A stretch of 36,970 nt of DNA from NCBI GenBank assembly GCA_948437815.1, contig CAOJKG010000001.1:1-36970 (forward strand). The letters run 5' to 3'. This DNA is from an uncultured Mycoplasmatota bacterium. GTDB lineage: Bacteria > Bacillota_I > Bacilli_A > RF39 > UBA660. Below, piece after piece: positions 4,502-33,449 of the stretch. How positions within the stretch are numbered: position 1 is the stretch's first letter; each line of letters begins with the position of its first letter. Under the pieces are notes generated by a model. It was not told the DNA's origin. It did not search any database and saw only the letters and a program-made list of their open reading frames with translations. The position numbers and the translations under genes are program-made.

Positions 4502-4525
4502 TCTTGTTAGAGGTTGGTGTATACT

Positions 4526-5281
4526 ATGAAAAAATTTAAGTTGGTTGTAGTAACATTTATCGCAGGGCTGTTAGGGATGCCACTTGCATATGCTGAATGT
4601 GATGCAACAGAAACCAATAAGCTTAGCAGTTTAGCTAATAATGTTAAGGTTAGCCAAGAAATAATTCAAAAGGAGTTTGAACTTGGTGTTGGCGATAATC
4701 CTCCTGATGGATTAACAGAAGAGGAAATTAAAGATTATAAAATGAAAGTTGATTACTTTAAAATTTATATTAGTAATATAACAGAAGAAATATATGTAGT
4801 TGTTACTAATAATAATACAAAACAAACTAAAACTTTTAATTATAAAGATACTCAAAATGGTACTGCTTTTTTTGAAGAAGAGGTAGGTTCAGAAATAGTT
4901 AATTATACAATAGAGGTTCATGCTTCAGGTAAAACAAATTGTAATAGTAAAAAACTGAGAACTTTTTATTTAACTACACCAATGTATAATATCTTTAGTG
5001 AATCATCTTTATGCGAAGGCATAAAAGAATTCTATTTATGTCATGAATATTTATCAGTTAAAACAACATTTGATAAATTTGAAGAGTTGACTAATCAGTA
5101 TAGAGATGGAAAACTAAAAGCAGATGGCTCAATTAAAGATGATGATAAAAAAGATAATGGAATTATAGGGTTTATAAAAGAACATAAAGGAACTGTAATT
5201 GTTGCAACTTTAGTTATAATTACAATTGGGGGATTAGTAACAGTGATAATAGTAAAAAAGCAAAGGAGTAGAATAGTATGA
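4526..5281 (+). CDS. Exported type-I membrane-anchored protein, no recognised family (first gene of the Tad-like operon)
   Basis: ORF 4514..5281 trimmed to ATG 4526. The signal peptide is MKKFKLVVVTFIAGLLGMPLAYA, followed by ECD. The C-terminal TM segment is TVIVATLVIITIGGLVTVIIV, followed by the basic stop-transfer KKQRSR. The mature part has 4 Cys. Its stop codon overlaps the next start (ATGA at 5278-5281). Confidence 0.6.
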   Translation: MKKFKLVVVTFIAGLLGMPLAYAECDATETNKLSSLANNVKVSQEIIQKEFELGVGDNPPDGLTEEEIKDYKMKVDYFKIYISNITEEIYVVVTNNNTKQTKTFNYKDTQNGTAFFEEEVGSEIVNYTIEVHASGKTNCNSKKLRTFYLTTPMYNIFSESSLCEGIKEFYLCHEYLSVKTTFDKFEELTNQYRDGKLKADGSIKDDDKKDNGIIGFIKEHKGTVIVATLVIITIGGLVTVIIVKKQRSRIV

Positions 5282-8200
5282 AAAATGTTTTAAGAAATGC
5301 TAGTTTATTTATTATCGCAATTGCATTTACTTTTACTTTTACTTTAGATGTAAAAGCTGATGCTTGTGGAGATTTAGATAATAATCGTTGTAGAATAGGA
5401 ACTCGTGGAGCAATAAAAGTTGCAGGGAATGGTTTTAAATATCAACAACTTTCATCAGCTACATCGAATAATAGAGAATATGTTGGTAGAACATATTATA
5501 ATACGATAAATGTATCAGTAAATTTTAATAATAATCCAGGTAATTATTATTTTTCGCATTATAAAGATTCATATTCTTCATTGTTTTGCTTAGATGCTCA
5601 ATATGAGGGTGGCTCATCAGTTAATGCTGAAAGATTTTTATTAGATACAAGTGAAAGTAAAAAGGTTCAAGTATTCGATGCTGCAGTGATGAGTATATTG
5701 ACAGACGGTGGAGTGCATACTGGTGGTGCTGGAGATGCAACTTATTGGGCTAAATTAATGGCAATACGTGCTATGACTTATACATTTGGTTTTTATAATA
5801 CTGCTAATAAAGATTATCTTTCTGCATTTTATGCTGGTTTAACAGTAGCTCATAATTGGAATGAATTTTATGCTTCTGATGTAGCTGCAGTAAATGCTGA
5901 ACTTGCTAAAATTGGTGCAGGATCTATCGGAAGTGTTCCACTATATAGATCTTATAATTATACAGGTGATCCTGTTAATAGTGGTGCAGGTTATTACGTT
6001 AGAGGACTTGCAGCAGCAGCAGAATATGCAAGAAAATTGGCTTCTCAACCTAAAGTTGAAGTAAGTAATCCTCAAGCTGGAGAAGTAGAAACTTCAGGAG
6101 AAGAGGGAGACGTTTTTGTAAAAAAAGATGTAGTACATACTCTTAAATTAAGTGGTTTTACAGAACAAAATAAATTTATTATAAATTCAAATGATAATTA
6201 TGGAATTAAGTTTGCTGAAGGAACTCAATATGATGGACTAACAGCTTATATTTCTCAAATTGAAATTTCAGGAGGGCCAGTATTATCTAAGGATCAAATA
6301 CCTTATGGTCAGGACTTTGTTGAACTTGGTTATATTAAAGAAAATCAAGATGTTGAAATCAAAATTACTGTTCATTTTGAAGGTTGGAAGTCTTCAACTA
6401 ATTCAAATATAGTAACTTTGAAATGCGGACAAACTCCAATTAAGTATTCTATTGATGGATCTTATGGTACTGGGATGGATGAACAATTTGGTGAGTACAT
6501 CGGAACAGTTTGGTATGCTGGTAAAAAAGAAAAACAAAGATACGTTGGTGTAGAAAGAGTTAGCGAAAGAAGAGAAGATGATGCTGGTACACCATGGGAA
6601 AGTCCTTATGAAACAAACTTAATTGACGCTTGTAGTTGTGATGATTTGGAAGAAGCATGTAAAGCTACTCATAATCCCAATAGTGATGAATGTATTGAAT
6701 TAAAAGAATCTAACTGTGGTATGTGTTCATGGTATGATGTTTTATGTGAATTTGGAGATGAAGAATCTTGTGAAAATTATACTACGCAATGTGATCTAAA
6801 GTGTGATACGTATTTTAAAACTTTTGAATGCTGTGATGAACGTGGGGAATTGATTGTTTCAACCTTAGATGATCATGAAGTTAGTATTTTGGGTCCAGGC
6901 GAAGATAATCCTGATGCTCCAAGTGTAAAAGCTTGTTTTGTTACTGCTGTTGATAATATGGCAAGGGTTTCAGAAGATAGTGATGAGAAAAATAACGCTG
7001 GAGTTGAAGGGGTAAAAGATCAAAAAGATAATACTTATACTTTAGCTGATATGAAATCAAATAGTTATTGTACAGTTTCATGTAAAGAAGATTATATTAT
7101 GACAATGCCTACAGCAAAATTAGTAAATGCTGGTAGATACTTTACATTTAAAGCAAAAGTAGAGGGTACTAAGGCTTGTTATACTAATACGATAGATAGA
7201 GAAAAATATAATAAGGATATTGTTGAAAAACAAAAAGCAATATATGAAGCCTACAATGGTTGGATAAGATATCAGACAGCTTTAGAATCAAATCCTCATA
7301 ATTTGCCTACTGTTACAGAATGTGGTAGTTGTCATGCGTGGTGTCATGGTTCAAGTTGTGATAGTCAAATAACTTATATACCAGGAGCTACAACAGATCA
7401 GTTTTCTTATACAGCTTATTACCCTGAATTTAGCGAGGGAAGGAATGGGTCAGGCCAAACTTTAAGATTAAATCCAACTACAGAATATGGCCCAGAAAGT
7501 GATACTACACAAACACATACAGAAAGCGATGTAGCTAATTGTACTAAAACTTGTTCTAATGGCAATGGAGGTACAACAACATGTCCGTGTGAGCATTCGT
7601 GTAGTTATACTGTTGTTGATGAGGAACGAGATGTTGGCTATTTAATAAAAAGGTTGACAGATCTTAGAGATGGTTACAAGAATGCTCTAGATGCTGCTAT
7701 TGAAGATTATAATCAGACTATAAAGGAATTTAATCAATGTTCAAAATGGGATTCAGAAATTAATTATGATCCTGAAGTTTATTATGATTATTCAGAAACT
7801 GATTATATGAATATGTTAAATAATCATATTGGTGAAATGGAAAAAGATGTACAGACATCTTCAACAAATGATTGGTATTGTAATGGAACTACTACATTAA
7901 ATAATTTTAAATTTGGTCAATTATCAGATCAAAATTATGAACAATGTAATAATTCAAATACTTCTTATGTAGAACCAAAAATGCAATATGTTATGTGTTC
8001 TAGCAGTAAACGCGAATGCTATTTTGATCCTAACTCTTATGTTTCAGAAGCGTCATATAAAAAGGTTACTTCTAAAGTAGTAGCTAATTATAGACCAGCA
8101 ACATTATTCTATAATGCTTATCCGACTGGTGAAATAACTACTAGTAAGGCTGATGACAATGTAGCTTTAGAAAATAAATTACCTGTTGCATTAAATAGAG

Positions 8201-8961
8201 AACGTGGAATTTATAAATATCAAGTTAAAATGGAGAAATTAGGAGAATTTTATGATCAAGCTCCTAGTGACAATTTGGGGCGTTATGTAGGTTCTAGTAC
8301 AGCAGTTGTTGATCCAACAGTTCTGGATTATAATTGTTCTTATTTAGTTAATATAACTAAAACAACTGGTTGGGTATGTGATTTCGATGATGATTGTGAT
8401 GATGACTGTATTGCTAATTGCATAGGACCTAATTGTGATGATTACTGTGATGGTAATGATTGTGTAGCAGATTGTATTGGACTAGGATGTATATATGATT
8501 CAGGTGCTGGAACATCATTATTAGAAAAAGTAGTTTCGTTAAATAGTTTATTTCCAAATGGAACTGATTCTTATAACTGGGATGAAAGAAGAAATGATAA
8601 AGCACGTTTAACTGTATCTGAAATTGAAGGAAAAGGAAATTCTGTATATGATGAAGAACCTATATTAAGTATAACGCTTACTCCTTCAAGTGCTAGAGAA
8701 ATAAAGAAATATAATAATAGTGTTATCAATGATGGTGGATATTCAAATAAAACTGTTTCTTGTGAAAATCGTGATGGATTTGAGCAAATAGTTTGTTATA
8801 GTTCATTTATTGATGATTTACTCGCTGGTGAATTTGGTGATGTAGTTAATGATAACAGCTTAATTGCTGAAGAAAGTTATCGTCATGGATCTTCTGGATA
8901 CTTTGAACTATGGGGTAATGCAGTATCTGAAGATAACATGATTGGTCCAGCTTGGAAGTAG
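5278..8961 (+). CDS. Giant (1227 aa) secreted cysteine-rich protein, no recognised family
   Basis: A long uninterrupted ORF with a signal peptide (MKNVLRNASLFIIAIAFTFTFTLDVKA). I hand-count about 46 Cys, clustered at nt 6631-6834, 7321-7359, 7540-7602 and 8377-8490. There is no LPXTG motif and no C-terminal TM segment. Confidence 0.75.
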   Translation: MKNVLRNASLFIIAIAFTFTFTLDVKADACGDLDNNRCRIGTRGAIKVAGNGFKYQQLSSATSNNREYVGRTYYNTINVSVNFNNNPGNYYFSHYKDSYSSLFCLDAQYEGGSSVNAERFLLDTSESKKVQVFDAAVMSILTDGGVHTGGAGDATYWAKLMAIRAMTYTFGFYNTANKDYLSAFYAGLTVAHNWNEFYASDVAAVNAELAKIGAGSIGSVPLYRSYNYTGDPVNSGAGYYVRGLAAAAEYARKLASQPKVEVSNPQAGEVETSGEEGDVFVKKDVVHTLKLSGFTEQNKFIINSNDNYGIKFAEGTQYDGLTAYISQIEISGGPVLSKDQIPYGQDFVELGYIKENQDVEIKITVHFEGWKSSTNSNIVTLKCGQTPIKYSIDGSYGTGMDEQFGEYIGTVWYAGKKEKQRYVGVERVSERREDDAGTPWESPYETNLIDACSCDDLEEACKATHNPNSDECIELKESNCGMCSWYDVLCEFGDEESCENYTTQCDLKCDTYFKTFECCDERGELIVSTLDDHEVSILGPGEDNPDAPSVKACFVTAVDNMARVSEDSDEKNNAGVEGVKDQKDNTYTLADMKSNSYCTVSCKEDYIMTMPTAKLVNAGRYFTFKAKVEGTKACYTNTIDREKYNKDIVEKQKAIYEAYNGWIRYQTALESNPHNLPTVTECGSCHAWCHGSSCDSQITYIPGATTDQFSYTAYYPEFSEGRNGSGQTLRLNPTTEYGPESDTTQTHTESDVANCTKTCSNGNGGTTTCPCEHSCSYTVVDEERDVGYLIKRLTDLRDGYKNALDAAIEDYNQTIKEFNQCSKWDSEINYDPEVYYDYSETDYMNMLNNHIGEMEKDVQTSSTNDWYCNGTTTLNNFKFGQLSDQNYEQCNNSNTSYVEPKMQYVMCSSSKRECYFDPNSYVSEASYKKVTSKVVANYRPATLFYNAYPTGEITTSKADDNVALENKLPVALNRERGIYKYQVKMEKLGEFYDQAPSDNLGRYVGSSTAVVDPTVLDYNCSYLVNITKTTGWVCDFDDDCDDDCIANCIGPNCDDYCDGNDCVADCIGLGCIYDSGAGTSLLEKVVSLNSLFPNGTDSYNWDERRNDKARLTVSEIEGKGNSVYDEEPILSITLTPSSAREIKKYNNSVINDGGYSNKTVSCENRDGFEQIVCYSSFIDDLLAGEFGDVVNDNSLIAEESYRHGSSGYFELWGNAVSEDNMIGPAWK

Positions 8962-8979: not shown

Positions 8980-9393
8980 ATGCAAAGTTCATATTGGGGT
9001 TATTGGTTAGTTTTAATGGGTGTTGCAATAGTAGGGCTTATGGTTTCTGTTAATGGTCTTACTACCACCTCTACTCAAGATCATTATGCAGTAAAAGAAA
9101 TAGTTGAAGCTTCAATGTTGGAGTCTGTTGATTATGGTTATTATAGAGATTACAATGAAGTTAAAATGAATAAAGAGAAATTTATGGAAGTATTTACAAG
9201 AATGTTAGCAGAAAATATGAGTTCAACAGATACTTATGAAATAAATTTTTATGAAATGTATGAAGCTCCACCTAAAGTTAGTGTAGAAGTAAAGAGTCAT
9301 AGTGGAACTAATTTTATTTCTACTTCTGACTATGATGTTACTACTAGAGTAGATGCAATAATTCAAATTCATGCTGAAGAAATTGGCAGATAA
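8980..9393 (+). CDS. Small N-terminally anchored protein (pseudopilin-sized, 137 aa), no recognised family
   Basis: SD GAGGAGGA lies 8 nt upstream. The N-terminus MQSSYWGYWLVLMGVAIVGLMVSV forms a single hydrophobic helix. The rest is hydrophilic with mixed secondary-structure character. There is no G/xxxxE prepilin motif. Confidence 0.6.
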   Translation: MQSSYWGYWLVLMGVAIVGLMVSVNGLTTTSTQDHYAVKEIVEASMLESVDYGYYRDYNEVKMNKEKFMEVFTRMLAENMSSTDTYEINFYEMYEAPPKVSVEVKSHSGTNFISTSDYDVTTRVDAIIQIHAEEIGR

Positions 9394-9404
9394 AGGAGGA
9401 TAAA

Positions 9405-10232
9405 ATGGGAAATATTGTAACAACATTTAAAAGATTCTTTTCGAATAAAAATACTGTTACTATACTTGGTGTGTTACTTGGTTTAATTGTACTTTATGTG
9501 GGGTACAATTATCGTGTTAAGACTGCAGTTAGTACAATAAATGTTCCTGTAGCTAAAAAGACAATATATGGTAGAACAGTTATTACTAGTGATTTAATCA
9601 CACAAACTGAAGTTTTATCTAGTATGGTTACTGGTAAAAATAATACGATTATTAGAAGTAACTCTAATTTAATTAGTGCTAATGATCCTTTTTGCGTAGC
9701 AGTTAATACTAGTATACCTGCAGGAGGATTCTTTCATACAGAACAAGTTGTAAAATGTGGTACTGTAAATGGAAATTATTTAAAAAACATGCCTGACGGA
9801 TATAGTCCTGTAAGTATTCCTGTAGATATTCATAAAACTTATGGTAATTCAATGTTACCAGGAGATTATATAGATTTATATGCGAGAATGACTAGTAGTG
9901 ATGGAAAGTTAATATTTGCTAAATTGGTTAGTAAGTTACCAATTATGGCAGTTGTAGATGGTAAAGGGCAAAGTGTTTTTGGAGGAGTTACTGTAGGTAC
10001 TCCTGCTGAATTACAGTTTGCTTGTCCTAATGTTCAAGATGGCATTAATTTGTTTATGCTTTTGACTAAAGCAATTTTATTAGGAGAGTCTAAAGTTGAA
10101 TTAATACCTATGCCTGGTAATGCAACTTATACATCTACTCCAGGTGAAACTAAGGTAGATAGTAATTATATGATGAATTTAATACTTTCATATACTCAAG
10201 ATGTTCCTGATGAATCTGTACCACAACAATAA
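9405..10232 (+). CDS. CpaB/RcpC-like Flp-pilus assembly protein (SAF domain plus RcpC-like domain)
   Basis: SD AAGGAGGA precedes the start. There is an N-terminal TM segment (VTILGVLLGLIVLYVGY). A SAF-like segment follows (INVPVAKKTIYGRTVITSDLITQTEV). A CpaB-like core is present (SPVSIPVDIHKTYGNSMLPGDYIDLYA). The gene sits immediately upstream of the secretion ATPase, as in Tad loci. Confidence 0.6.
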   Translation: MGNIVTTFKRFFSNKNTVTILGVLLGLIVLYVGYNYRVKTAVSTINVPVAKKTIYGRTVITSDLITQTEVLSSMVTGKNNTIIRSNSNLISANDPFCVAVNTSIPAGGFFHTEQVVKCGTVNGNYLKNMPDGYSPVSIPVDIHKTYGNSMLPGDYIDLYARMTSSDGKLIFAKLVSKLPIMAVVDGKGQSVFGGVTVGTPAELQFACPNVQDGINLFMLLTKAILLGESKVELIPMPGNATYTSTPGETKVDSNYMMNLILSYTQDVPDESVPQQ

Positions 10233-10272: not shown

Positions 10273-11361
10273 TTGAATGATGCAATATTTTCTCAAATTG
10301 ATTTTGGGCCTATAAAAGAGTTTTTAGACATCGATGATATAACCGATATTTCCTATACTAATGGAGGACAGTTGTGGTTAAAATCTTTATCTAAAGGTGT
10401 TTATAGGGTGGAAAGACCAGACATTAATAATGCCTTAATTGAAAAATTGGCATTTCAATGTTCAAATGTTATGGGAAAAACATTCAATATGGCACATCCT
10501 TTTTTAGATGCTGAAAGTACTGAATTACGTCTTAACTTTGTTCATGATTCAATTGCAACTAATGGAGTTGCCTTAGTTATACGTAAAACTCCTGCAAAAA
10601 TTCGTTTGAATAGAGAAAAATTGTTGAATGAAGAATATGTAAGCGCTGATTTACTTGATTTCTTACTTAATTGTGTTCAAGGACATGCTAATATTATAGT
10701 TAGTGGGGAAACTGGTTCAGGAAAAACTGAGTTAGTTAAATATCTTGCTAGTACAACTAAAGAAAATGAGAAAATTATTACAATAGAAGATACTTTAGAG
10801 TTGCACTTAGATAGAATATTTCCGCATCGTGATATAGTAGCAATGAAAACCAATAACATAGCTTCTTATTCAGAAGTGTTAGTTACTTGTATGAGACAGA
10901 ATCCAATATGGATATTATTATCTGAGGTTCGTAGTGCAGAAGCTGTTATGGCTGTTCGTAACTCTATATCTTCTGGTCACCATATAATCTCAACTATTCA
11001 CTCTGATAAAGCAGCTTTGATTCCAATGCGTATGTATAGTTTGATTGAGTCTAATATTGATGTAGAACAATTTGTAACGACAATTCATAGATATGTTCAA
11101 ATAGGTATATATGTAAAGGGATATATGAGTGAGAAACTAGGAAGATTCCAACGTGAGATTATGGAAATTTGTGAGTTTTATGTTGATGAAAATAATAAGC
11201 CACAAGTTAATACTATTTTTCAGAAGACTTTAGATGGTAGATTTACTCTTAATAATCCTACGAAATATTTAAGAAATTATTTGGCAGTTCAAGGGGTTAA
11301 GTTAGAAGAAGATTTATTTCATTTAGGAAATAAAGAACAAGAATTAATTGAAACATTGTAA
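10273..11361 (+). CDS. Secretion ATPase of the TadA/CpaF/VirB11 branch (T2SSE superfamily)
   Basis: TTG start at 10273, about 9 nt after the SD AAGGAGGTGA. Motifs: Walker A GETGSGKT (nt 10705-10728), Asp box ITIEDTLEL, Walker B WILLSEVR, His box GHHIISTIHS. There is no tetracysteine Zn motif, so it is not GspE/PilB-like. Confidence 0.8.
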   Translation: MNDAIFSQIDFGPIKEFLDIDDITDISYTNGGQLWLKSLSKGVYRVERPDINNALIEKLAFQCSNVMGKTFNMAHPFLDAESTELRLNFVHDSIATNGVALVIRKTPAKIRLNREKLLNEEYVSADLLDFLLNCVQGHANIIVSGETGSGKTELVKYLASTTKENEKIITIEDTLELHLDRIFPHRDIVAMKTNNIASYSEVLVTCMRQNPIWILLSEVRSAEAVMAVRNSISSGHHIISTIHSDKAALIPMRMYSLIESNIDVEQFVTTIHRYVQIGIYVKGYMSEKLGRFQREIMEICEFYVDENNKPQVNTIFQKTLDGRFTLNNPTKYLRNYLAVQGVKLEEDLFHLGNKEQELIETL

Positions 11362-11375
11362 AAGGAGGAAGTGAA

Positions 11376-12272
11376 ATGGAGTTAGTTATTTGGTTCGTAA
11401 TAGCTTTATTTGTAATCATTTATCGAAAAAATGATGGCACTGAAACTTTTTATAATTTTTTTAAATCACAATTTGGTAAAATTTATGCTAAATATGCACC
11501 TTATAGTTTCCAAACTATAAGTGCTAAAATGAAAGATCTAAAACAAAATTATACTATGAAAGATTATGTGGTTCAAATAGTAATATTAGGTGGATTTGCT
11601 GGAGGAGTGGCATTTTTATACTTTTATAATTTTATTATGGTAGCGATTTATGGAGGACTTGCTATTGCATTTGTTCCTTATCTAGCATGGCTTAGAAGTA
11701 AAAGAATATATAGTGAATATATATTTGAGCAAATTCAAGTTTATACTACTAACGTAATTATGGAGTTTAATACGACACAGAGTTTTGTTAAATCTTTAGA
11801 AGGTGTTAGAGATTCAGGAATACTCGAAGATCCTGTTTTGGAAGATTTGAAAGTTATGATTAATATGTCTTATCAAAATGGTACAATTGACGAATCAATT
11901 GAATATTTTAATGAAAAATATCCTTATTATATGGTAAAGAATATGCATCAATTATTCTTACAAATTACTAAGGAAGGTGCTAAAGATTCAGGAGAAGCTT
12001 TAGAAAATATGAGTATGGATATAGATGCTTTAGTTGAAGGTGTTTATCGTGATCAAATGGATCGTAAGCAATTTCATACTAAATTTATTACTTTTGCATG
12101 TGTATTATTTTTACTCGTTATGGTAATGCAGGTTTTACTTGGTAGAAAGAATTATATGTTACTTTTAGATTTATGGTATGCTCATATAGTATTACATGCC
12201 ATAATAATTATTAATAGTTATTTCTTACTCACAGGAGAAAAATATTATAATGATGATGTGGGGGTAGAGTAA
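11376..12272 (+). CDS. TadB-like inner-membrane platform protein (T2SSF-like topology)
   Basis: SD AAGGAGGAAG precedes the start. The topology is an N-terminal TM segment, a TM pair (IVILGGFAGGVAFLYFYNFIMVAIYGGLAIAFVPYLAW), a helical cytoplasmic domain of ~130 aa, and C-terminal TM segments. The gene directly follows the ATPase. The assignment rests on topology and position more than on recognisable motifs. Confidence 0.5.
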   Translation: MELVIWFVIALFVIIYRKNDGTETFYNFFKSQFGKIYAKYAPYSFQTISAKMKDLKQNYTMKDYVVQIVILGGFAGGVAFLYFYNFIMVAIYGGLAIAFVPYLAWLRSKRIYSEYIFEQIQVYTTNVIMEFNTTQSFVKSLEGVRDSGILEDPVLEDLKVMINMSYQNGTIDESIEYFNEKYPYYMVKNMHQLFLQITKEGAKDSGEALENMSMDIDALVEGVYRDQMDRKQFHTKFITFACVLFLLVMVMQVLLGRKNYMLLLDLWYAHIVLHAIIIINSYFLLTGEKYYNDDVGVE

Positions 12273-13066
12273 TGCAAATAGAGTTAGCGATAGTAGCAAT
12301 TATTGTTTTTTATATTTTATCTAAAAGTGGCAGAATAAGCATAAGCAAGTTAATTGCCGATAATGAAATGTATTTTAGAAGATTAAAAGAAAGTGATTAT
12401 GAATTTTATGTAAAAGCTAAGTATGGAGATTCAGTAAATGCAGATATATTATTCAATAAAAGGTTACAAAATTCTTTGATTGTAATGCTGGTAGTCTTTT
12501 GTTTACTTCTAAAAAATATGTCTTATTTGTACTTTATTGTTGTTTTGATCGTAGGTTTTGCCTTCTTTAAATTAGATTATATGAATTTGAAAGGGTATTA
12601 TAAAAAACATTTACATGAGATAGATACAATGCTTCCTTATTACTTAAAGGGACTAGAAATATTAATTCAACACTATACAGTTCCAGTAGCAATAGGAAAA
12701 TCACTTGATGATGCACCAGATATATTTAAAGATGGTCTAAAAGAATTAATAAATAAAATAAATGCTGGAGATGACACGATTGAACCTTATATGGATTTTG
12801 CAAGACAGTATCCTGTTAGAGATTCCATGCGTATGATGCGTTTACTTTATCGTCTTAGTTTGGGTAGACAAGAGCGTAAACAAGAGCAATTAATAGCGTT
12901 TTCTAAAACTATTTCAAATCTACAACAAAAAGCAAGAGAAACTAAATATAAAAATCGTTTGGATAAAATGGAGTCTAAAACTATGAGTATGCTTATTGCA
13001 ACAGGTGTAGGTGTAATGGTATTACTTATTATATCAGTATTAATATTAATGAATGCGAGTGGTTAA
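12272..13066 (+). CDS. TadC-like inner-membrane platform protein (T2SSF domain)
   Basis: The start overlaps the previous stop (TAATG at 12270-12274). The cytoplasmic segment LPYYLKGLEILIQHYTVPVAIGKSLDDAPDIFKDGLKELINKINAGDD...FARQYP has the GspF/TadC-like pattern. TM segments flank it (LIVMLVVFCLLL..., MSMLIATGVGVMVLLIISVLILM). Confidence 0.55.
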   Translation: MQIELAIVAIIVFYILSKSGRISISKLIADNEMYFRRLKESDYEFYVKAKYGDSVNADILFNKRLQNSLIVMLVVFCLLLKNMSYLYFIVVLIVGFAFFKLDYMNLKGYYKKHLHEIDTMLPYYLKGLEILIQHYTVPVAIGKSLDDAPDIFKDGLKELINKINAGDDTIEPYMDFARQYPVRDSMRMMRLLYRLSLGRQERKQEQLIAFSKTISNLQQKARETKYKNRLDKMESKTMSMLIATGVGVMVLLIISVLILMNASG

Positions 13067-13095
13067 CAATTTTTTACATAATTTAGGTTAATAAC

Positions 13096-13124
13096 TTGAC
13101 ATTTAACGTAGATTTAGATAAAAT
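13096..13124 (+). promoter_or_regulatory. Internal sigma-A type promoter dedicated to the last gene of the Tad-like cluster
   Basis: TTGACA (13096-13101), a 17-nt spacer, then TAAAAT (13119-13124). It lies in the only sizeable intergenic gap of the cluster (13067-13148). Confidence 0.6.
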
Positions 13125-13154
13125 TAATATAGATAAGAAAGCGAGGAAATGTGT

Positions 13155-13571
13155 ATGTTAACAATGGCACCATCAGTTTGTTCTGATTTATGGGGAGTAT
13201 GGCAAATCTTAGGTTGGGTTTTAATGGTATTTAAAATAGTTATTCCAATTTTAATAATTTTATTTGGTATGATAGATTTAGGAAAAGCTGTAGTAGCAAG
13301 TAAAGATGATGAAATTAAGAAAGCTATTAAATCTCTTGCTATGAGAGCTGTAGCAGGTATTGTTATATTCTTTATTCCAACTTTAGTTGCAACTATCTTC
13401 AAGTTAGTAGATGGCTTCCAAGAAGTTAAAGGCGAGTATGATGTATGTGCTACATGTATTAGTAGTCCTGGTAAGTGTCAAACTACTGCTGAATCTCATT
13501 GTACTAGTCATAGTGGCACTTGGAACAAAGATACTGGTTGTAGTGGCTTCCAAGCAACAAAAACTGAATAA
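13155..13571 (+). CDS. Small two-TM hairpin membrane protein with a Cys-rich C-terminal tail (VirB2/TrbC-like topology; candidate unconventional filament subunit)
   Basis: ORF 13149..13571 has ATG codons at 13149 and 13155, and I prefer 13155 because it is 7 nt after GAGGA. TM1 is WQILGWVLMVFKIVIPILIILFGMI. The charged loop is DLGKAVVASKDDEIKKAIKSLAMR. TM2 is AVAGIVIFFIPTLVATIFKLV. The 48-aa tail contains 5 Cys (VCATCISSPGKCQTTAESHCTSHSGTWNKDTGC). Confidence 0.6.
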   Translation: MLTMAPSVCSDLWGVWQILGWVLMVFKIVIPILIILFGMIDLGKAVVASKDDEIKKAIKSLAMRAVAGIVIFFIPTLVATIFKLVDGFQEVKGEYDVCATCISSPGKCQTTAESHCTSHSGTWNKDTGCSGFQATKTE

Positions 13572-13574
13572 TAA

Positions 13575-13601
13575 GAATTCCGATTTTGGAATTTTTTTTT
13601 G
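13575..13601 (+). terminator. Rho-independent terminator ending the Tad-like cluster
   Basis: GAATTCC (13575-13581) pairs with GGAATTT (13588-13594) across loop GATTTT, followed by a run of nine or more T. Confidence 0.7.
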
Positions 13602-13831
13602 AATTTGATGTATGTTATATTATGAATATAACTTGGCCTTTAAGTTATAGGGGTTAATTGTTTTTAGGTGGTGTGAGCAATAAGTGTTCCTAATAAAAGA
13701 TAAGATATTAATTGAATTGATTTTTTTGATAAAATAAAGGAAATTATATTAAAATAATTGAAAGAGGAGGTTTAAAAATTAATAATTTGAGCGTTTTTTG
13801 TGATTTTTGATTATTTTTAGTTATAAAATTA

Positions 13832-13860
13832 TTGACTTTTGGCATAATATTTTATATACT
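13832..13860 (+). promoter_or_regulatory. Sigma-A type promoter of tRNA-Asn
   Basis: TTGACT (13832-13837), a 17-nt spacer, then TATACT (13855-13860). The mature tRNA 5' end is 12 nt downstream. Confidence 0.65.
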
Positions 13861-13871
13861 TTAGTAGTACT

Positions 13872-13947
13872 GCTCGTTTAGCTCAGTCGGTAGAGCGCAC
13901 GGCTGTTAACCGTTAGGTCGTAGGTTCGAGTCCTACAACGAGCGCCA
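13872..13947 (+). tRNA. tRNA-Asn (anticodon GTT), CCA encoded
   Basis: I folded a 76-nt cloverleaf by hand. The acceptor stem is GCTCGTT/AACGAGC (7 Watson-Crick pairs). The D arm is GCTC-AGTCGGTA-GAGC. The anticodon loop is CTGTTAA with GTT at 13905-13907, and there is one C-T mismatch at position 27:43. The T arm is GTAGG-TTCGAGT-CCTAC. The discriminator is G, followed by CCA. Confidence 0.92.
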
Positions 13948-13958
13948 TTTGAATTATT

Positions 13959-13982
13959 AAGTCTAGTTTCTAGACTTTTTTC
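13959..13982 (+). terminator. Rho-independent terminator after tRNA-Asn
   Basis: AAGTCTAG (13959-13966) pairs with CTAGACTT (13970-13977), followed by a T-run. Confidence 0.7.
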
Positions 13983-26507: not shown

Positions 26508-26556
26508 ATTGACAAATTTTTTATTTTTTATTTTGTATAATTATATTGGTGATAAT

Positions 26557-27462
26557 ATGAAAAGATTTATAACAAGAAAGACTATTAAAGTTCCAAGATA
26601 TAAATTATTGTGTTTTTATATGATTTTAACTATAGTTTTAATGATTTTTATTAAATTAAGTTTAAATATGTTTTTAAAATCTTTTAATCAAGAAAAATTA
26701 ATTAATTCTATTATTAATAATAGTTATGGTAATATTTTTACTACTATTGATAATAGTAAAGAAAATAGATTTTATAATAATATATTTGGTTTTCCTTTTA
26801 GTAATGAATCTAAGGTGAGTAATATTATAAATACAGAGCCTGTAATATATTTATATAATACTTTTCAAACGGATAAATATGTTAATCCTTATTATAGTTC
26901 TTATAGTATAAATCCGGTTGTAACGCAGGGCAATTTAATATTACAAGAATATTTAAAAAAATTAAATATTAATTCTTTAGTAGAAAAAGAAAGTGTTGCT
27001 AAAACTTTAAAAGATAATAATATAGATTATTCTCTTAGCTATAAAGGTTCTAGAATATTAATGGAAAAAGCTAAAAATAATAATCAAGGATTAGAATACT
27101 TTTTTGATATAGGAGTAAGTGAAGATAAAAGAGATGTTACTACTTATATAGGAGAAAAAGAAAATTTTGCTAAAATATTATTTATTGTAGGAACAGATTA
27201 TGATACTTACGAAGAAAATAAAAGATTTGCTACTATTTTAAATGATAAGTTAATAAATATTAATAAAAATATTACAAGAGGTATTAGTATGCGTGGAGGG
27301 AATGGTTTTCATGGTGTATATAATCAAGATTTCTCCTCTAAAGCTTTGAGAATCTTTATTGGTGGTAAAGAAAATACTATTGATGAAGTTAATAGAAGTT
27401 TAAAATTATTAGCTAATGTTATAGCATTTTATATAGAGGAGGAAAAGAATGAAAAAAAATAA
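26557..27462 (+). CDS. spoIIP: Stage II sporulation protein P (SpoIIP) family, possibly catalytically degenerate
   Basis: ORF 26509..27462 trimmed to ATG 26557. There is an N-terminal TM segment. The C-terminal two-thirds align by eye with SpoIIP (FAKILFIVGTDYDTYEENKRFATILNDKL...ITRGISMRGGNGFHGVYNQDFSSKALRIFIGGKENTIDEVNRSLKLLANVIA). The expected metal-ligand positions appear substituted (see findings). Confidence 0.7.
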   Translation: MKRFITRKTIKVPRYKLLCFYMILTIVLMIFIKLSLNMFLKSFNQEKLINSIINNSYGNIFTTIDNSKENRFYNNIFGFPFSNESKVSNIINTEPVIYLYNTFQTDKYVNPYYSSYSINPVVTQGNLILQEYLKKLNINSLVEKESVAKTLKDNNIDYSLSYKGSRILMEKAKNNNQGLEYFFDIGVSEDKRDVTTYIGEKENFAKILFIVGTDYDTYEENKRFATILNDKLININKNITRGISMRGGNGFHGVYNQDFSSKALRIFIGGKENTIDEVNRSLKLLANVIAFYIEEEKNEKK

Positions 27463-27778
27463 AAAAACTAGATATTTTTTTAGAACTTTACATATATTAT
27501 TTTTTATGTATATTGCTCTTATTATAGCTTATGAAAGTGGTTATTATGAAACTAAATCACATAATAGGGCAGTTCTTACTAAAGAAGCAATGGAAAGATT
27601 TGAAAGTGATTTAGCTCAAGGGCAAGTAATAGATGTTAAAGATTATTTAAAATCTGAAAATCCTGATTACTCTAATGGAATAACAAAAGTTGGTAATAAA
27701 ATATCTAATGGAATAAGTGATTTTATGACAAAAGGATTATCAGGGATTTTTGATGTTTTAAAAGGATGGTTTTGGTAA
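27449..27778 (+). CDS. Small membrane protein, YqxA-like by position (downstream of spoIIP)
   Basis: It overlaps the spoIIP end by 14 nt and has SD GAGGAGGAA. It has one TM segment (FFRTLHILFFMYIALIIAY) and is 109 aa. The family assignment rests on synteny and size only. Confidence 0.4.
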   Translation: MKKNKKTRYFFRTLHILFFMYIALIIAYESGYYETKSHNRAVLTKEAMERFESDLAQGQVIDVKDYLKSENPDYSNGITKVGNKISNGISDFMTKGLSGIFDVLKGWFW

Positions 27779-28024
27779 TAGATAAAAAATTATATAAAAA
27801 AAACAAGTGACATAAAGTAGGCACATAGAATAAATTAAAACTTGACTTCCTTATTCTGTTTCTTTCTGTATACATTTTTACTAGATAATTCTTTTTATGT
27901 TAAATTTTTTATAAAAATATTATTGCTTTTACAAAGTGCGACAAATCTTGACACAACTTTATGCTATGATAAGTTTATTTTCTAATATATTTAATGAAAA
28001 TATAATTTGAAAGGAACAGAAGTA

Positions 28025-28561
28025 ATGATTACAAAAGAGAAAAATATTCCATTAAATGACGTAGTATTTAATAAATATAAAAACGTTAATGAAATATTTA
28101 AAAGTGAAAGATTAGACGAAGAAAATGGATATTATGTTATGTCAAAACTGAAAATAGAAAAAGAATTTATTTTTAATTTAAGCAATACTGATATATATCA
28201 TTTTGCTGTTATAATTTTTAAAAAATATCATAATATTAATATATTTAATAATAATAGAGTAGATATAATAGTCTCAAATACTGATATAAAAGAAAGTATA
28301 AATAAAATAAATAATAATTCTTTACAAAAAAGATATTTAAAAGAGCATTTAATTATTTTTTCTGATTTAGGTAATATCATAAGAAACGCGATATTAGTTA
28401 ATCAAACTCTAGAAAATAAAGATAGATCTCAAAACAAGCTTTGGAGCTATTATTTAATTAAGTTAGTTATAGAAAATGTTGAGTTTTTATTTGAGTTTGA
28501 TGTAATATATAAAGAAAACAAAGAAAATCATTATAGAATACAAAGATTAGAAAAAATATAA
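28025..28561 (+). CDS. Hypothetical cytoplasmic protein (178 aa), orphan, very AT-rich
   Basis: ORF 28007..28561 trimmed to ATG 28025. No signal peptide, TM segment or motif that I can name with confidence. It is flanked by unusually long non-coding regions (228 nt and 192 nt). Confidence 0.45.
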   Translation: MITKEKNIPLNDVVFNKYKNVNEIFKSERLDEENGYYVMSKLKIEKEFIFNLSNTDIYHFAVIIFKKYHNINIFNNNRVDIIVSNTDIKESINKINNNSLQKRYLKEHLIIFSDLGNIIRNAILVNQTLENKDRSQNKLWSYYLIKLVIENVEFLFEFDVIYKENKENHYRIQRLEKI

Positions 28562-28753
28562 AAGCAAGTTATGTCGTCCGGAAGTATTAATAATACCTCT
28601 CCGAATTTAACATAACTCGCTTCTGCTTACAATGATATCATATGATTTGCACTAAGTCAAATTTTCTTTTTATAAACTTAAATATGGTAGAAAACTAATT
28701 TTTATATAGTTTTTTTTCTCTTTTCTTAGTATAATTAAATGAGAGGTGAGTTT

Positions 28754-29842
28754 ATGCGAATAGTTGTTAGTGCTGGTGGTACCGGTGGGCATATTTATCC
28801 AGCTTTGGCTATAGTAAATAAACTAAAAGAAGAATGTAAAAATTTGGAAGTTTTATATATTGGTACAAAAAATAGAATGGAAAGTGAAATTGTTCCCAAT
28901 AGAGGTATTCCTTATGAAGGAATAGAAATATATGGTTTTAGTAAAAATATTATGAAGGATATTAAAAATATTTTTTATATTAATAAAAGTTATAAGAAGT
29001 GTGTTAAATTAATAAAAGATTTTAATCCAGATTTAGTTTTGGGTTTTGGAGGATATGTAACTTATCCTGTTTTAAAAGCGGCTAAAAAACTTAAAATTAA
29101 AACATTTTTACATGAGCAGAATAGTATTGTTGGAAAAACGAATAGAGTATTATCTAAAGATATAGACTTGGTAGCAGTTTCTTTTGAATCTACAAAAGAG
29201 AGTTTTAAAAAAGCGAAAAAAGTTATTTATTCTGGAAATCCTTGTGGAGAAGCATCTTTAAGTACGAAAGAAATTAAAAAAAGTGATATAGGACTTGATA
29301 ATAATAAAAAGTTGGTTTTAGTTGTAGCAGGTTCTTTGGGTAGTAGTTCTATGAATGCTAAATTAAAAGAATTTATTTTAATGTCGCGTAAAAGTAATTA
29401 TCAAATTTTATATATTACAGGTAAAAAATATTATGAAGACTTTATTAAAGATTTAAAACTTCCTAGTAATGTAAAAGTTTTACCTTATTTAGATAATTTA
29501 GCTGGGTTAATTAAAAATACGGATTTAATGGTTACAAGAGCGGGAGCTAGCACAATGAGTGAGATTTTAGCTTTAAATGTGCCTGCAATATTTATTCCAA
29601 GTCCTTATGTTGCTAATAATCATCAGTTTTATAATGCTAAAGAAATTGTTGATAAAAAAGCAGGGATTATGATTGAGGAAAAAGATTTAACAGGTGAAAA
29701 ATTATTTTTAGAAGTTACAGAAATACTTAATAATGAAGAAGAATATCAAATTATGAAGAATAATTTAAAAAATATGGGACGTACTGATAGTAGTGAGCTA
29801 ATTGTAAATGAAATTAAGGTGATTTTAAATGGAAAATATTAA
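28754..29842 (+). CDS. murG: UDP-N-acetylglucosamine--N-acetylmuramyl-(pentapeptide) pyrophosphoryl-undecaprenol N-acetylglucosamine transferase
   Basis: ORF trimmed to ATG 28754 after GAGAGGTGAG. The N-terminus is MRIVVSAGGTGGHIYPALA. Also present are GGYVTYP, HEQN and VTRAGASTMSEILALNVPAIFIPSP. Confidence 0.9.
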   Translation: MRIVVSAGGTGGHIYPALAIVNKLKEECKNLEVLYIGTKNRMESEIVPNRGIPYEGIEIYGFSKNIMKDIKNIFYINKSYKKCVKLIKDFNPDLVLGFGGYVTYPVLKAAKKLKIKTFLHEQNSIVGKTNRVLSKDIDLVAVSFESTKESFKKAKKVIYSGNPCGEASLSTKEIKKSDIGLDNNKKLVLVVAGSLGSSSMNAKLKEFILMSRKSNYQILYITGKKYYEDFIKDLKLPSNVKVLPYLDNLAGLIKNTDLMVTRAGASTMSEILALNVPAIFIPSPYVANNHQFYNAKEIVDKKAGIMIEEKDLTGEKLFLEVTEILNNEEEYQIMKNNLKNMGRTDSSELIVNEIKVILNGKY

Positions 29843-30707
29843 AGATATAACTATAAAAAAGGATGTTTCTTTAAAAAATTATAATACTTATAAAATAGTA
29901 TCAAAAAGTGATTATTTAATAGAAGTTTCATCTATTGAAGGGTTAATAGATTTAATTAAGTATTTAAAAGAAGAAAATATTGATTTTATGATTTTAGGTA
30001 ATGGCTCTAATATAATATTAGACGATTATTTTAAAGGCGCTATTATTAAACTTAGTGGTTTTGATTATGTAAATATTAATAATAAAAAGGTTGTAGTTGG
30101 AGCAGGAACTATGATGGCTAAACTTACAATGAGTACAATCAATGAAAATTTGACAGGTTTAGAGTGGGCTGTTAATATTCCTGGAACTATTGGAGGGTCA
30201 ATAGTTGGAAATGCTGGTGCCTATAATTCAGAAATATTTGATAATTTGATAAGTATAAAAGTTTTGAATGATGATTTTGAAGTTGTAGATATGTCAAAAG
30301 ATGAATTTATTTATGAATATCGTCATACTAATATTAAAGAATTAGGCTTAATTGTTTTAGAAGCAACTTTTTTGTTAGAAGATGGCAGAAAGGAAGAATC
30401 TTTACAAATTATTCAAGATAGATGTGAAAGACGTAAAATTAGTCAACCACTTGATATGCCATCAGCGGGTAGTGTTTTTCGTAATCCAGAAGGAGATTAT
30501 GCAGGAAGACTTATTGAAGCAGTTGGTTTAAAAGGGAAAAAAATAGGTGGGGCAGAAGTTTCTAATAAACATGCCAATTTTATTGTCAATGCTGGTAATG
30601 CTACTAGTAATGATGTAAAAAGTTTGATAAAATTAATTAGAGAAGAAGTTAAAAAAGAATTTAATATTGATCTAGTATTAGAACAAGAAATAATTAACTG
30701 GAAATAA
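29829..30707 (+). CDS. murB: UDP-N-acetylenolpyruvoylglucosamine reductase
   Basis: It overlaps the murG end by 14 nt. It has an FAD-binding segment (MILGNGSNIIL), GTIGGSIVGNAGAY, PSAGSVFRNP and GGAEVSNKHANFIVN. Confidence 0.9.
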   Translation: MENIKDITIKKDVSLKNYNTYKIVSKSDYLIEVSSIEGLIDLIKYLKEENIDFMILGNGSNIILDDYFKGAIIKLSGFDYVNINNKKVVVGAGTMMAKLTMSTINENLTGLEWAVNIPGTIGGSIVGNAGAYNSEIFDNLISIKVLNDDFEVVDMSKDEFIYEYRHTNIKELGLIVLEATFLLEDGRKEESLQIIQDRCERRKISQPLDMPSAGSVFRNPEGDYAGRLIEAVGLKGKKIGGAEVSNKHANFIVNAGNATSNDVKSLIKLIREEVKKEFNIDLVLEQEIINWK

Positions 30708-30727
30708 TTTAAAAAGGTGCGAAAATA

Positions 30728-31519
30728 ATGGCTACAAAAAAGGTAAAAAGGAAGAAGCTTAATATAAAAAGACTTATATTGTTATTATTAATTTTATATT
30801 TAATAATAATGATTTGTTATGCAATTATTTCGATGCCTATAAAAAATATCTATATTAGAAATACAAGACTTATAAAAGATAATGAAATTATTGAAATAGC
30901 TGGAATTAAAAACTATCCAGGAATATTTAAGATAAGTTCAAAAAAAATGGAAGAAAATATAAAAAAATTAGATTTAGTAAGTAGTGTAAAAGTAAAAAAG
31001 AAAATCTGGGGAAAAATAATTATAACTGTTGAGGAAGCAAAACCACTTTTTTATAATAGAAATGAAGAGAAAATTGTTCTTAGTAATATGAAAAGAGTTA
31101 GTCCAAGTAATAAATATTTAGGTATTCCAACTCTTGTTAATTATGTACCAAATGATTTGTTAGAGAATTTTATAAAAGCTTTTAGTATTATTGATAATGA
31201 TATTATAGGGATGATTAATGAGATAAAATATAATCCAGATATAGCAGGAGATATTGTTATTGATAATAATCGCTTTTTGCTTAGTATGAATGATACTAAT
31301 TTAGTTTATGTTAATACACTTAATATGAAAAGATTGAATGATTATAAAAAAGTTATGGGAACTATTGGAGATGCTAGAGGTACTTTATATTTGGATAGTT
31401 ATAATAGTAATAATAGTCTTTTTACACAGTTTGAAAATCAAGATACTGATGTAGATGATGATGATAAAAAAGATGATGAAAATGCAGGGGATAGTGATAA
31501 TGATGGAAGAGAAGATTAA
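30728..31519 (+). CDS. divIB: Cell-division protein DivIB/FtsQ (POTRA domain) with an acidic C-terminal tail
   Basis: It has a basic N-terminus, a TM segment (LILLLLILYLIIMICYAIIS) and a POTRA-like segment (IKNIYIRNTRLIKDNEIIEIAGI). The position after murG-murB fits. The tail is DTDVDDDDKKDDENAGDSDNDGRED. Confidence 0.75.
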   Translation: MATKKVKRKKLNIKRLILLLLILYLIIMICYAIISMPIKNIYIRNTRLIKDNEIIEIAGIKNYPGIFKISSKKMEENIKKLDLVSSVKVKKKIWGKIIITVEEAKPLFYNRNEEKIVLSNMKRVSPSNKYLGIPTLVNYVPNDLLENFIKAFSIIDNDIIGMINEIKYNPDIAGDIVIDNNRFLLSMNDTNLVYVNTLNMKRLNDYKKVMGTIGDARGTLYLDSYNSNNSLFTQFENQDTDVDDDDKKDDENAGDSDNDGRED

Positions 31520-32150
31520 TTATAAAAATAGATTATTGGATTTGGTAAAAACATTTAATGATAAACCAAAACTATTACTTCATAGTTGTTGTGGTCCTTG
31601 TTCAACACAAGTAATAGATTTTTTAAAAGATTATTTTATAATTACTATTTATTATTATAATCCTAATATTGAACCATTTGAGGAATATTTAAAAAGAAAA
31701 AATGAACAAATAAAATTTATTCAAAAGTTTAATGAGAATAGTCAGAATAAACTTGAATTTATAGATTGTGATTATAATAATGAGGATTATAAAGATATAG
31801 TTGATAATATCGAGCAAATAAAAGAAGGTGGAGCTAGATGCTCCAAATGTTTCTATTTAAGATTAGAAAATACAGCTAAAAAAGCTTTAGAAAATAATTT
31901 CGACTATTTTGGAACAACTTTAACTGTTAGTCCTCATAAAAATAGTCAGATTATAAATAAAATAGGGGAAGATATATCTAATAAATTAAATATTAAGTAT
32001 ATTTATGGTGATTTTAAAAAGAATGATGGTTATAAAAAAAGTATAGAATTTGCTCGAGAGTATGATTTGTATCGACAAGATTATTGTGGGTGCTTATATG
32101 GCAAAGATTTACAAAATAAAAGTATGAAAAAAGAAGAAACAATTAATTAA
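31503..32150 (+). CDS. queH: Epoxyqueuosine reductase QueH (DUF208 family)
   Basis: ORF 31455..32150 trimmed to ATG 31503 (ATG 31500 is equally possible). The hallmark motifs are LLLHSCCGPCS, GARCSKCF, TLTVSPHK and QDYCGC. Confidence 0.8.
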   Translation: MEEKINYKNRLLDLVKTFNDKPKLLLHSCCGPCSTQVIDFLKDYFIITIYYYNPNIEPFEEYLKRKNEQIKFIQKFNENSQNKLEFIDCDYNNEDYKDIVDNIEQIKEGGARCSKCFYLRLENTAKKALENNFDYFGTTLTVSPHKNSQIINKIGEDISNKLNIKYIYGDFKKNDGYKKSIEFAREYDLYRQDYCGCLYGKDLQNKSMKKEETIN

Positions 32151-32163
32151 TGTTCTTCTTTTT
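32131..32163. terminator. Bidirectional hairpin between convergent queH and the GspE-like gene
   Basis: AAGAAGAAACA (32131-32141) pairs with TGTTCTTCTT (32151-32160), with one bulged A, across loop ATTAATTAA. T-runs lie on both sides. Confidence 0.5.
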
Positions 32164-33367: not shown

Positions 33368-33449
33368 ATTAAGTATCACCTATTCTAATATAGATTATAC
33401 TATATTTTTAATATTTTCTCAATTTATATTTCCTAAATTTATGTAAAGA

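Follow-up and report, generated by a model that had tools for sequence, protein, structure and literature searches.

The window analysed here comprises the 36,970 nucleotides (nt) of contig CAOJKG010000001.1 (assembly GCA_948437815.1, positions 1 to 36,970 of the forward strand) from an uncultured Mycoplasmatota bacterium, and the gene in question is found at 13155-13571, where it ends a cluster with genes of a Tad-like module. It encodes a VirB2-like, pilin-like protein of 138 amino acids (aa) and is framed by its own transcription signals, which are given here together with the open reading frame (ORF):

13063-13068 and 13073-13078, plus strand: two extra TTGACA-like hexamers (TTAACA and TTTACA), 33 and 23 nt 5' of the -35 box
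13096-13124, plus strand: promoter of the sigma-70/SigA type with the -35 box TTGACA (13096-13101), a 17-nt spacer and the -10 box TAAAAT (13119-13124), an 11/12 match
13143-13146, plus strand: ribosome-binding site GAGG inside the conserved GAAAGCGAGGAA, 8 nt 5' of the ATG at 13155, read from the sequence
13155-13571, plus strand: VirB2-like (PF18895-type) pilin-like protein of 138 aa, assigned by ORF, profile, topology and alignment of homologues
13573-13600, plus strand: intrinsic terminator with a 10-bp A/T-rich stem, a 4-nt loop and a T9 run (dG -7.7 kcal/mol)

A preliminary description of this region, made from the sequence without database searches, had given the last gene of the cluster a TTGACA-17-TAAAAT promoter of its own, and this is borne out by related species: at least 10 of the 12 promoter positions are kept in 66 of 69 distinct orthologous upstream regions, and the spacer has 17 nt in likewise 66 of the 69. 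Within the window, the promoter at 13096-13124 is the top-scoring promoter-like site across 8-15 kb, although the total of such sites in this A/T-rich DNA is what shuffling leads one to expect, and it is the conservation across species that makes the signals of 13096-13601 more than chance. The extra hexamers are present at -33/-23 (or -24/-14) in most of the 67 promoter regions examined in the window and in related loci, and are possibly a regulator site, an UP-like element or tandem -35-like elements. The context of the ribosome-binding site is kept in those related loci that are arranged like the window, and the start at 13155 agrees with the 'MLIM...' start of the homologues; the longest ORF opens at an alternative ATG at 13149, 2 nt after the ribosome-binding site. 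With 88 nt, the gap 5' of the gene is the widest within the cluster, the remaining gaps having at most 40 nt, and it is indeed the only real intergenic gap, as had been noticed before. At the other end of the gene, the hairpin with its T9 run is present as described, and only the word 'strong' went too far: the stem has just two G-C pairs, for which reason it was not called by the terminator scanner, and the strength of the terminator was therefore overstated. A hairpin of at most -5 kcal/mol together with a T5 run was detected 3' of 40 of 69 orthologues, and by eye, most of the remaining ones also have a hairpin and a T-run after the stop, with stem sequences that vary between species. The promoter and terminator arrangement of a separate transcription unit is in this way conserved across species.

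The protein is built as had been outlined, with about 138 aa, two hydrophobic helices, a charged loop and a tail with cysteines. An N-tail of 12 residues is followed by a helix at about residues 13-39 (27 residues), the loop DLGKAVVASKDDEIKKAIKSLAMR (residues 41-64), a second helix at about residues 65-84 and an acidic tail of 54 residues, and the last 48 residues of the protein hold five cysteines, with one more cysteine at position 9. Hydropathy and charge analysis found no Lys or Arg in the N-tail, a net charge of -3 in the tail, and six Lys or Arg in the loop, all within the 25-residue segment 40-64. The AlphaFold2 (AF2) model, which has a predicted local distance difference test (pLDDT) score of 79.8, consists of a long helical hairpin and a small tail domain, and the hairpin spans residues 13-88 at a pLDDT of about 85-92. 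Hydropathy, charge and AF2 model agree on two transmembrane (TM) helices, a short basic loop and termini on the same side, which is the topology of PF18895-type proteins, and the protein is probably oriented N-out/C-out, with the lysine-rich loop in the cytoplasm. It had been proposed that this topology is that of VirB2/TrbC-like proteins and not of Flp or type IV pilins, and this holds: the protein starts with MLTMAPSVCSDLW..., has no class III signal motif, and contains two helices, not the single one of Flp and type IV pilins. A lipobox of a lipoprotein at the N-tail cysteine was ruled out, as V, F or P occupies position -1 and a signal peptide is lacking.

The hairpin and the loop are near-invariant among homologues, and the tail varies in sequence and length. 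The N-tail cysteine precedes the first helix in all 75 distinct copies, at a fixed distance to the loop in 71 of them, and at least three cysteines follow the second TM helix in all 75, with the pattern CxxC..P..C in 66. In all 71 species loci in which an ORF was scored, the ORF is intact, and the ratio of non-synonymous to synonymous substitution rates (dN/dS) of the gene is 0.19-0.35 between species, at a dS near saturation (about 0.8-1.1). The gene is under purifying selection, and because hairpin and loop, cysteines, promoter, terminator and dN/dS are all conserved, it is a functional and independently, probably strongly transcribed unit. A collection of proteins clustered at 90% contains 552 relatives at E<=1e-3, all of which stem from metagenome-assembled genomes (MAGs) of uncultured gut "Bacilli", "Tenericutes", "Mycoplasma sp. 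CAG:776", Ca. Coprovivens and Ca. Ventrenecus; the nearest to the window are the mouse-gut MAGs MGBC164908 and MGBC161736.

Profile comparisons connect the protein with PF18895 (T4SS_pilin), which has served as the VirB2-like profile in a survey of type IV secretion systems (T4SSs) of Patescibacteria (PMC12102498). The window protein matches model positions 5-70 of 71 with 18.7 bits (E 0.0019), at a gathering threshold of 26.6 bits, and 22 of 24 close homologues match at E<=0.01, the best one at 2.8e-6. The family profile finds 7473 clusters at 50% identity, and among the family representatives, P0241 (E 2e-42 to the family profile) passes the PF18895 cut-off with 32.3 bits, and P0245 also touches T4SS_CagC. 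The sequences thus suggest that the family extends PF18895 and that the window protein is a divergent member of it. Of the profile searches that the preliminary description had proposed, it is this family-level match that was successful, whereas the window protein itself has no match to PF04956 (TrbC) or Maff2 at E<=0.1 in the Pfam search and none to NF045849 (Mbov_0395), a model that is touched by 2 of 24 family members at E 0.007, far under its cut-off. A search with tblastn in 72,556 plasmids returned no match for the protein. An identity with TcpD was rejected (probability 0.2% in hhalign of the family profile against TcpD of pBMB65), and so was a holin or phage origin, as there is no PHROG match. 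In many family members the hairpin is found at the C-terminus of larger secreted proteins, including fusions with GDSL lipase or Big_2 domains (P0265, P0309, P0276), where it may act as a membrane anchor or display module.

What the protein belongs to becomes clearer from the gene neighbourhoods in relatives, which were taken from the best 80 of 225 loci matched in a scan of GTDB species representatives. Both flanks are covered in 35 loci. Twelve of these are window-like, with a Tad-like core (the ATPase and membrane-protein genes), the orthologue of the 138-aa gene, a tRNA-Asn gene and addBA, and fourteen have the Tad-like core plus a T4SS module with VirB6-, VirB3- and VirB4-like genes after the orthologue; in thirteen of the fourteen, the stretch from the platform-position genes to the orthologue further encodes small candidate pilins, TadE-like proteins and a 350-aa protein. 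A T4SS module without a Tad-like core within 7-10 kb is found in four loci, and other arrangements in five. The Tad-like core lies just upstream in 43 of the 54 species loci with enough upstream sequence, so that the linkage to the ATPase and platform-position genes, on which the preliminary description had made its proposal depend, is kept in other genomes, and the chromosomal position of the gene is syntenic across species. Of the 46 species loci that extend at least 4 kb downstream, 25 have VirB4, VirB6 and VirB3 homologues beside the orthologue, and the window gene has none beside it.

The T4SS module of the relatives has the order pilin paralogue, VirB6-like, VirB3-like, split VirB4, cell-wall hydrolase, lipoprotein and VirD4-like. 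The paralogue next to the gene bears a signal peptide and is recognised by hhalign with a probability of 96% (E 3e-9). The VirB6-like protein matches the Mbov_0396, MMCAP2_0566 and pLS20_p028 models, the VirB3-like protein has 103-107 aa, the VirB4-like ATPase matches P-loop_TraG (2.4e-13), AAA_10 and DUF87, and the hydrolase, which follows where the locus extends far enough, has SpoIID and NlpC/P60 domains; a VirD4-like coupling protein was seen in L091 and L093-L096. Two separate ORFs make up VirB4 in all loci examined in detail, one for the N-domain (182-202 aa) and one for the ATPase (594 aa), a division that is conserved across species, and the N-domain ORF (PF26593, TraC-like) corresponds, as a 184-aa ORF, to residues 98-276 of the VirB4 Mbov_0397. 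No relaxase was seen beside these chromosomal T4SS clusters, and the pilin-like hairpin always precedes VirB6, also in contexts without a Tad module. Loci with a split VirB4 are the following:

L058, 13910-16304: split VirB4
L060, 10755-13096: split VirB4
L091, 9450-11788: split VirB4
L089, 7027-11785: VirB3 and split VirB4 beside the T2SSE orthologue

Two of these show what has become of the T4SS genes in species of the window type. In L060, VirB3 and the two parts of VirB4 directly follow the gene, and in the window-type MAG CANRPK01 (L036), VirB3 and VirB4 are found on another contig (L089), where they follow SpoIIP, MurG, MurB, FtsQ, QueH and a reverse-strand T2SSE gene. VirB6, the hydrolase and VirD4 do not adjoin the retained VirB3 and VirB4 in window-type genomes. 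In the window, the same run of SpoIIP, MurG, MurB, FtsQ, QueH and reverse T2SSE lies at 26509-33379 and is then followed by a TRAM-methyltransferase, not by T4SS genes, and no VirB3, VirB4 or VirB6 homologue or relic was found within the 37 kb, nor a Flp relic, which agrees with the earlier statement that VirB4 is missing. Directly 3' of the 138-aa gene, where relatives carry T4SS genes, there is instead a tRNA gene:

13872-13947, plus strand: tRNA-Asn(GTT)

This tRNA gene is flanked by promoter-like sites (13726-13860) and a terminator (13959-13977). Of about 45 window-type loci, seven were scanned, and all seven have a tRNA-Asn gene in either orientation 3' of the gene, whereas it is absent from all five scanned loci that are linked to or carry a T4SS. 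The tRNA-Asn site is thus probably a rearrangement or deletion junction. Since relatives carry T4SS genes right next to the gene, the occurrence of a VirB2-like protein beside a Tad machine without VirB4 is largely explained: the combination had been called unusual, and the apparent paradox is mostly an effect of the rearrangement of the locus.

The genes upstream of the 138-aa gene, and one further ATPase gene of the window, are these:

4514-8961, plus strand: head of the cluster, encoding two hypervariable secreted proteins of 255 aa (C-terminal TM helix) and 1227 aa (Cys-rich)
8980-10232, plus strand: DUF5411 protein (137 aa, N-terminal TM helix) and CpaB/RcpC-like protein (275 aa), assigned by profile matches
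10273-11361, plus strand: CpaF/VirB11-type secretion ATPase, 362 aa (PF00437, 1e-26)
11376-13066, plus strand: a pair of polytopic membrane proteins (298 and 264 aa) at the place of TadB/TadC, assigned by position, size and TM layout
32162-33379, minus strand: second ATPase, a canonical T2SSE (PilB/ComGA-like; PF00437, 1e-123)

The product of 10273-11361 qualifies as the CpaF/TadA-type ATPase of a Tad system. Its best PDB match is CpaF (5e-16), followed by FlaI and then VirB11, and it remains under the threshold of every equivalog model (VirB11, TadA, TrbB). It is 92-97% identical across species whose AddA and AddB are only 47-64% identical, with an inter-species dN/dS of 0.04-0.06 compared to 0.28-0.57 for addA and addB; because dS is saturated, this conservation reflects selection and not recent transfer, and a recent horizontal spread was ruled out, dS being saturated as in the flanking genes. 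The Tad-type ATPase next door, which the preliminary description had recognised, is thereby well founded, but the 'platform' is only positional. Searches with the 298-aa and 264-aa proteins gave no match to T2SSF or any other Pfam profile, nor any in NCBIfam, PDB or PHROG, hhalign saw no similarity between the two, and the AF2 model is poor (pLDDT 58.5), its fold search being meaningless. The two proteins could thus not be identified as TadB and TadC, and the label of a Tad platform would have to be taken from position, size and TM layout. Their inter-species dN/dS is 0.06-0.11. The family of the 298-aa protein has at least 8000 members and no Pfam model, and plasmids of Bacillus thuringiensis and B. 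cereus encode, at the corresponding position, a counterpart with 26% identity (E 5e-10). As to the other module genes, the 137-aa protein matches PF17424 (DUF5411) at 4e-50, and the CpaB/RcpC-like protein matches TIGR03177 (3.7e-6) and PF16976 (6e-4), both below threshold. No Flp-like ORF, TadV peptidase or TadZ was found within the window.

The two proteins at the head of the cluster have no family match in Pfam or NCBIfam and are only 31-82% identical where core genes are 85-100% identical, with a dN/dS of up to 0.69; they are candidates for adhesins or tip proteins that are exposed and subject to recombination or diversifying selection. In this respect, the window is a mosaic: the 138-aa protein is 100% identical to that of MGBC164908, where the 255-aa and 1227-aa proteins are 66% and 62% identical, and these two are 96% and 82% identical to those of MGBC161736. 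In relatives, two proteins of about 80 aa (starting with MKEATGELNMTV..., with Cys-rich tails) and two proteins of about 160 aa (starting with M[KR]EAIGGTWL...) are encoded between the platform-position genes and the 138-aa gene:

L026, 6792-8226: proteins of about 80 and 160 aa
L058, 7111-8818: proteins of about 80 and 160 aa
L073, 7316-8842: proteins of about 80 and 160 aa

To judge from their sequences, they may represent pilins together with minor pilins, and their N-terminal motif is unusual and loosely shared by DUF5411 proteins. These proteins as well as the TadE-like and the 350-aa (TadZ-position) proteins of the relatives have no profile match, and DUF5411 and TadE-like proteins share a 20-residue N-terminal motif that is not significant.

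It is somewhat probable that the 138-aa protein is an abundantly made, VirB2-like, pilin-like subunit of a chromosomal monoderm T4SS that was ancestrally contiguous with the Tad-like module. The gene would then encode a divergent PF18895 membrane hairpin of the VirB2/TrbC superfamily that is made in large amounts from its own promoter. The N-tail cysteine and the CxxC...C motif of the tail would be located on the same outer side, and two disulfides probably close the hairpin, which would recall the way in which T-pilin and TrbC are cyclised head to tail. The T4SS would be vertically inherited, of monoderm type, and related to the systems of Mollicute integrative and conjugative elements (ICEs) and of pLS20, and its full gene set would ancestrally have been positioned directly 3' of the Tad-like module and the pilin gene, as it is in related gut Bacilli. 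In the window lineage, the T4SS genes would have been removed from the site, with the tRNA-Asn gene at the junction, and in close relatives they would have been partly retained at the site or relocated. The pilin gene would thus look like the last gene of a Tad-like cluster because the T4SS genes were lost or relocated at this junction. It is from the sequences that we infer polymerisation or conduit formation, the disulfides, and the ATPase that would handle the protein.

Several observations weigh against this assignment to a T4SS pilin. The score of the window protein lies under the PF18895 gathering score, and a profile search of PDB sequences with the family gave only noise. Foldseek found no PDB structure at E<1 for the model, including VirB2, TraA and CedA1, albeit helical hairpins are poorly discriminated by this method. 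VirB2, TrbC and TraA have a cleavable leader that is absent here, as only 12 residues precede the first TM helix and the ORF cannot be extended upstream. The fusions with GDSL lipase or Big_2 domains suit a membrane anchor as well as a pilin, and VirB3, VirB4, VirB6 and VirD4 are missing from both sites of the window where relatives carry them. Finally, among cell-walled Gram-positive bacteria there is to date no T4SS for which a pilus has been shown (PMC12857230, PMC9905601).

Another explanation, unlikely as it is, would be that in the window-type lineage the Tad-like engine, i.e. the ATPase and the 298-aa and 264-aa proteins, maybe with VirB3 and VirB4, extracts and polymerises the VirB2-like protein. 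The close upstream position of the Tad-like core in most species loci suits this idea, and window-type clusters lack the Flp-like, TadE-like and 350-aa genes that relatives hold between the platform-position genes and the 138-aa gene. As the Flp-like genes are lost and the ATPase and membrane proteins are still extremely constrained (dN/dS 0.04-0.11 at saturated dS), the engine must have a substrate. The genes that are kept, VirB2-like, VirB11/CpaF-like and sometimes VirB3 and VirB4, are moreover the set for pilus formation in Gram-negative systems, where VirB4 and VirB11, not VirD4, are required for it (PMC12857230). However, the pilins on which platform proteins of the type IV filament superfamily act have just one helix, at the N-terminus, and carry a class III signal, and the 138-aa protein has neither. 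The DUF5411 protein with its pilin-like N-terminal helix remains and could be the substrate of the module, or Flp-like genes may sit elsewhere in the genome. In addition, other species have the gene together with T4SS genes and no nearby Tad module, and the homologous Tad-like module of B. thuringiensis plasmids has no copy of the gene. In its most far-reaching form, a T4SS-type pilin would have been captured by the Tad-like engine (ATPase, 298-aa and 264-aa proteins, CpaB-like and DUF5411 proteins, maybe VirB3 and VirB4), VirB6, hydrolase and VirD4 would have been shed, and the result would be a disulfide-stapled pilus of conjugative type on a cell-walled Gram-positive bacterium. This is quite doubtful, and if it were true, such a system would be a hybrid of two filament superfamilies that has not been described before.

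It is equally improbable that the protein is a membrane part of the T4SS, of the Tad-like complex or of both that does not polymerise, be it a channel or stator related to the first hairpin of VirB6 or an anchor that displays a disulfide-bonded surface domain. A weak likeness to VirB6 points in this direction, since 11 of 24 family members match the Mbov_0396 model and hhalign gives E 0.019 to the VirB6-like N-terminal hairpin, and so do the family hairpins that are fused to enzymes or Ig-like domains. Small proteins with two TM helices, such as TcpD, are essential non-pilin parts of T4SSs in Firmicutes. A relationship of VirB2 and VirB6 has been noted earlier (PMC9905601), and monoderm bacteria are held to lack conjugative pili (PMC9905601, PMC12857230). 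On the other hand, the dedicated and conserved promoter and terminator point to a far higher stoichiometry than that of the neighbours, which is typical of major subunits, the hypervariable and length-variable tail suits an exposed and repeated surface structure, and TcpD is not similar to the protein. One might also think of a conjugative element that has degraded and left the gene behind as a decaying relic without present function, because the T4SS genes are missing, the tRNA gene adjoins and tRNA genes are common integration and excision sites of such elements. This is excluded by the conservation of the ORF (71 scored species loci), loop, cysteines, promoter and terminator, by the dN/dS of 0.19-0.35 at a dS of about 0.8-1.1, and by the chromosomal synteny across species, and is most improbable.

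If the protein is a T4SS pilin subunit, as favoured here, it has several known counterparts. With VirB2, TrbC and TraA and with PF18895 it shares the core of about 70 aa, the two hydrophobic helices, the short basic loop and the predicted N-out/C-out orientation, and the gene of the relatives is, like those of the known pilins, directly 5' of VirB6-, VirB3- and VirB4-like genes; unlike VirB2, TrbC and TraA, the window protein is leaderless, has a Cys-rich C-terminal extension of 50 aa and an invariant N-tail cysteine, has no PF04956 match and only a PF18895 match below cut-off, belongs to a cell-walled monoderm host and has no T4SS genes nearby. The VirB2-like arrays of Patescibacteria T4SSs (PMC12102498; PMC12857230) are similar in that they belong to chromosomal monoderm MPF_FATA-like T4SSs with no obvious relaxase, contain several divergent VirB2-like genes, are near a type IV filament system and occur in small host-associated genomes. 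Here, in contrast, the genomes are Bacillota gut MAGs with murG, murB and genes for sporulation, a DUF5411/CpaF Tad-like module serves as the partner system, and in the window lineage one pilin gene is left, the T4SS genes once linked to it having been shed. Mbov_0395 of Mollicute ICEs (NF045849) precedes a VirB6-like protein (Mbov_0396) and VirB4 (Mbov_0397) in the same order, and the VirB6- and VirB4-like neighbours in relatives match Mollicute models, but the pilin-like family itself remains below the cut-off of the NF045849 model. Flp of Tad systems (type IVc) is also small, abundant and hydrophobic, and its gene likewise accompanies those of a CpaF-type ATPase, a CpaB-like protein and a pair of polytopic membrane proteins; yet Flp consists of one helix, bears a G/XXXXEY class III signal and depends on the TadV peptidase, and the window protein has two helices, no such motif and no peptidase gene nearby.

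The Tad-like module has counterparts of its own. A predicted DUF5411/CpaF/PilC-like system has been noted in Clostridia (PMC9523054), and B. thuringiensis plasmids (pBMB65, analysed as L088 in the record coordinates 16271-39293, and pHT73-like plasmids) have a module in the order DUF5411, CpaB-like, AAA_31 (TadZ-like), T2SSE, two membrane proteins and DUF4320, which adjoins a Tcp-type T4SS with TcpC, TcpD, TcpE and VirB4. DUF5411, the CpaB-like protein, the T2SSE ATPase and two membrane proteins are common to these loci and the window; they differ in that they have no homologue of the 138-aa gene and in that the plasmid systems are conjugative, with a relaxase. As far as sequence likeness goes, the Bacillus plasmid counterparts and the Clostridia system support the Tad-like reading of the window module, and by analogy, a DUF5411/CpaF Tad-like module of this kind may be the origin of the 'VirB11-like' ATPase that pAW63-type plasmids have been reported to encode.

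Known already at the profile level are PF18895 and the NCBIfam 'pilin-like' protein of Mollicute ICEs, and no paper was found in the literature that describes such a VirB2-like gene coupled to a Tad-like module. What looks new is a leaderless, Cys-stapled and tail-bearing VirB2-like protein with its own conserved promoter, the conserved coupling of its gene to a DUF5411/CpaF Tad-like module in cell-walled gut Bacilli, and a natural series of reduced systems. According to one review, Gram-positive T4SSs have neither VirB2 pilins nor VirB11-type ATPases, Patescibacteria being the sole exception (PMC12857230), and according to another, monoderm bacteria lack conjugative pili (PMC9905601). In uncultured gut Bacilli, there are thousands of VirB2-like clusters, chromosomal and syntenic, between a CpaF/VirB11-like module and a relaxase-less T4SS, and both modules have cores under stronger constraint than the housekeeping genes that flank them. 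They are a concrete candidate for a Gram-positive T4SS pilus or conduit, and the reduced series, from the full system to Tad, pilin and VirB3/VirB4 and further to Tad and pilin only, lets one ask which of the modules handles the pilin.

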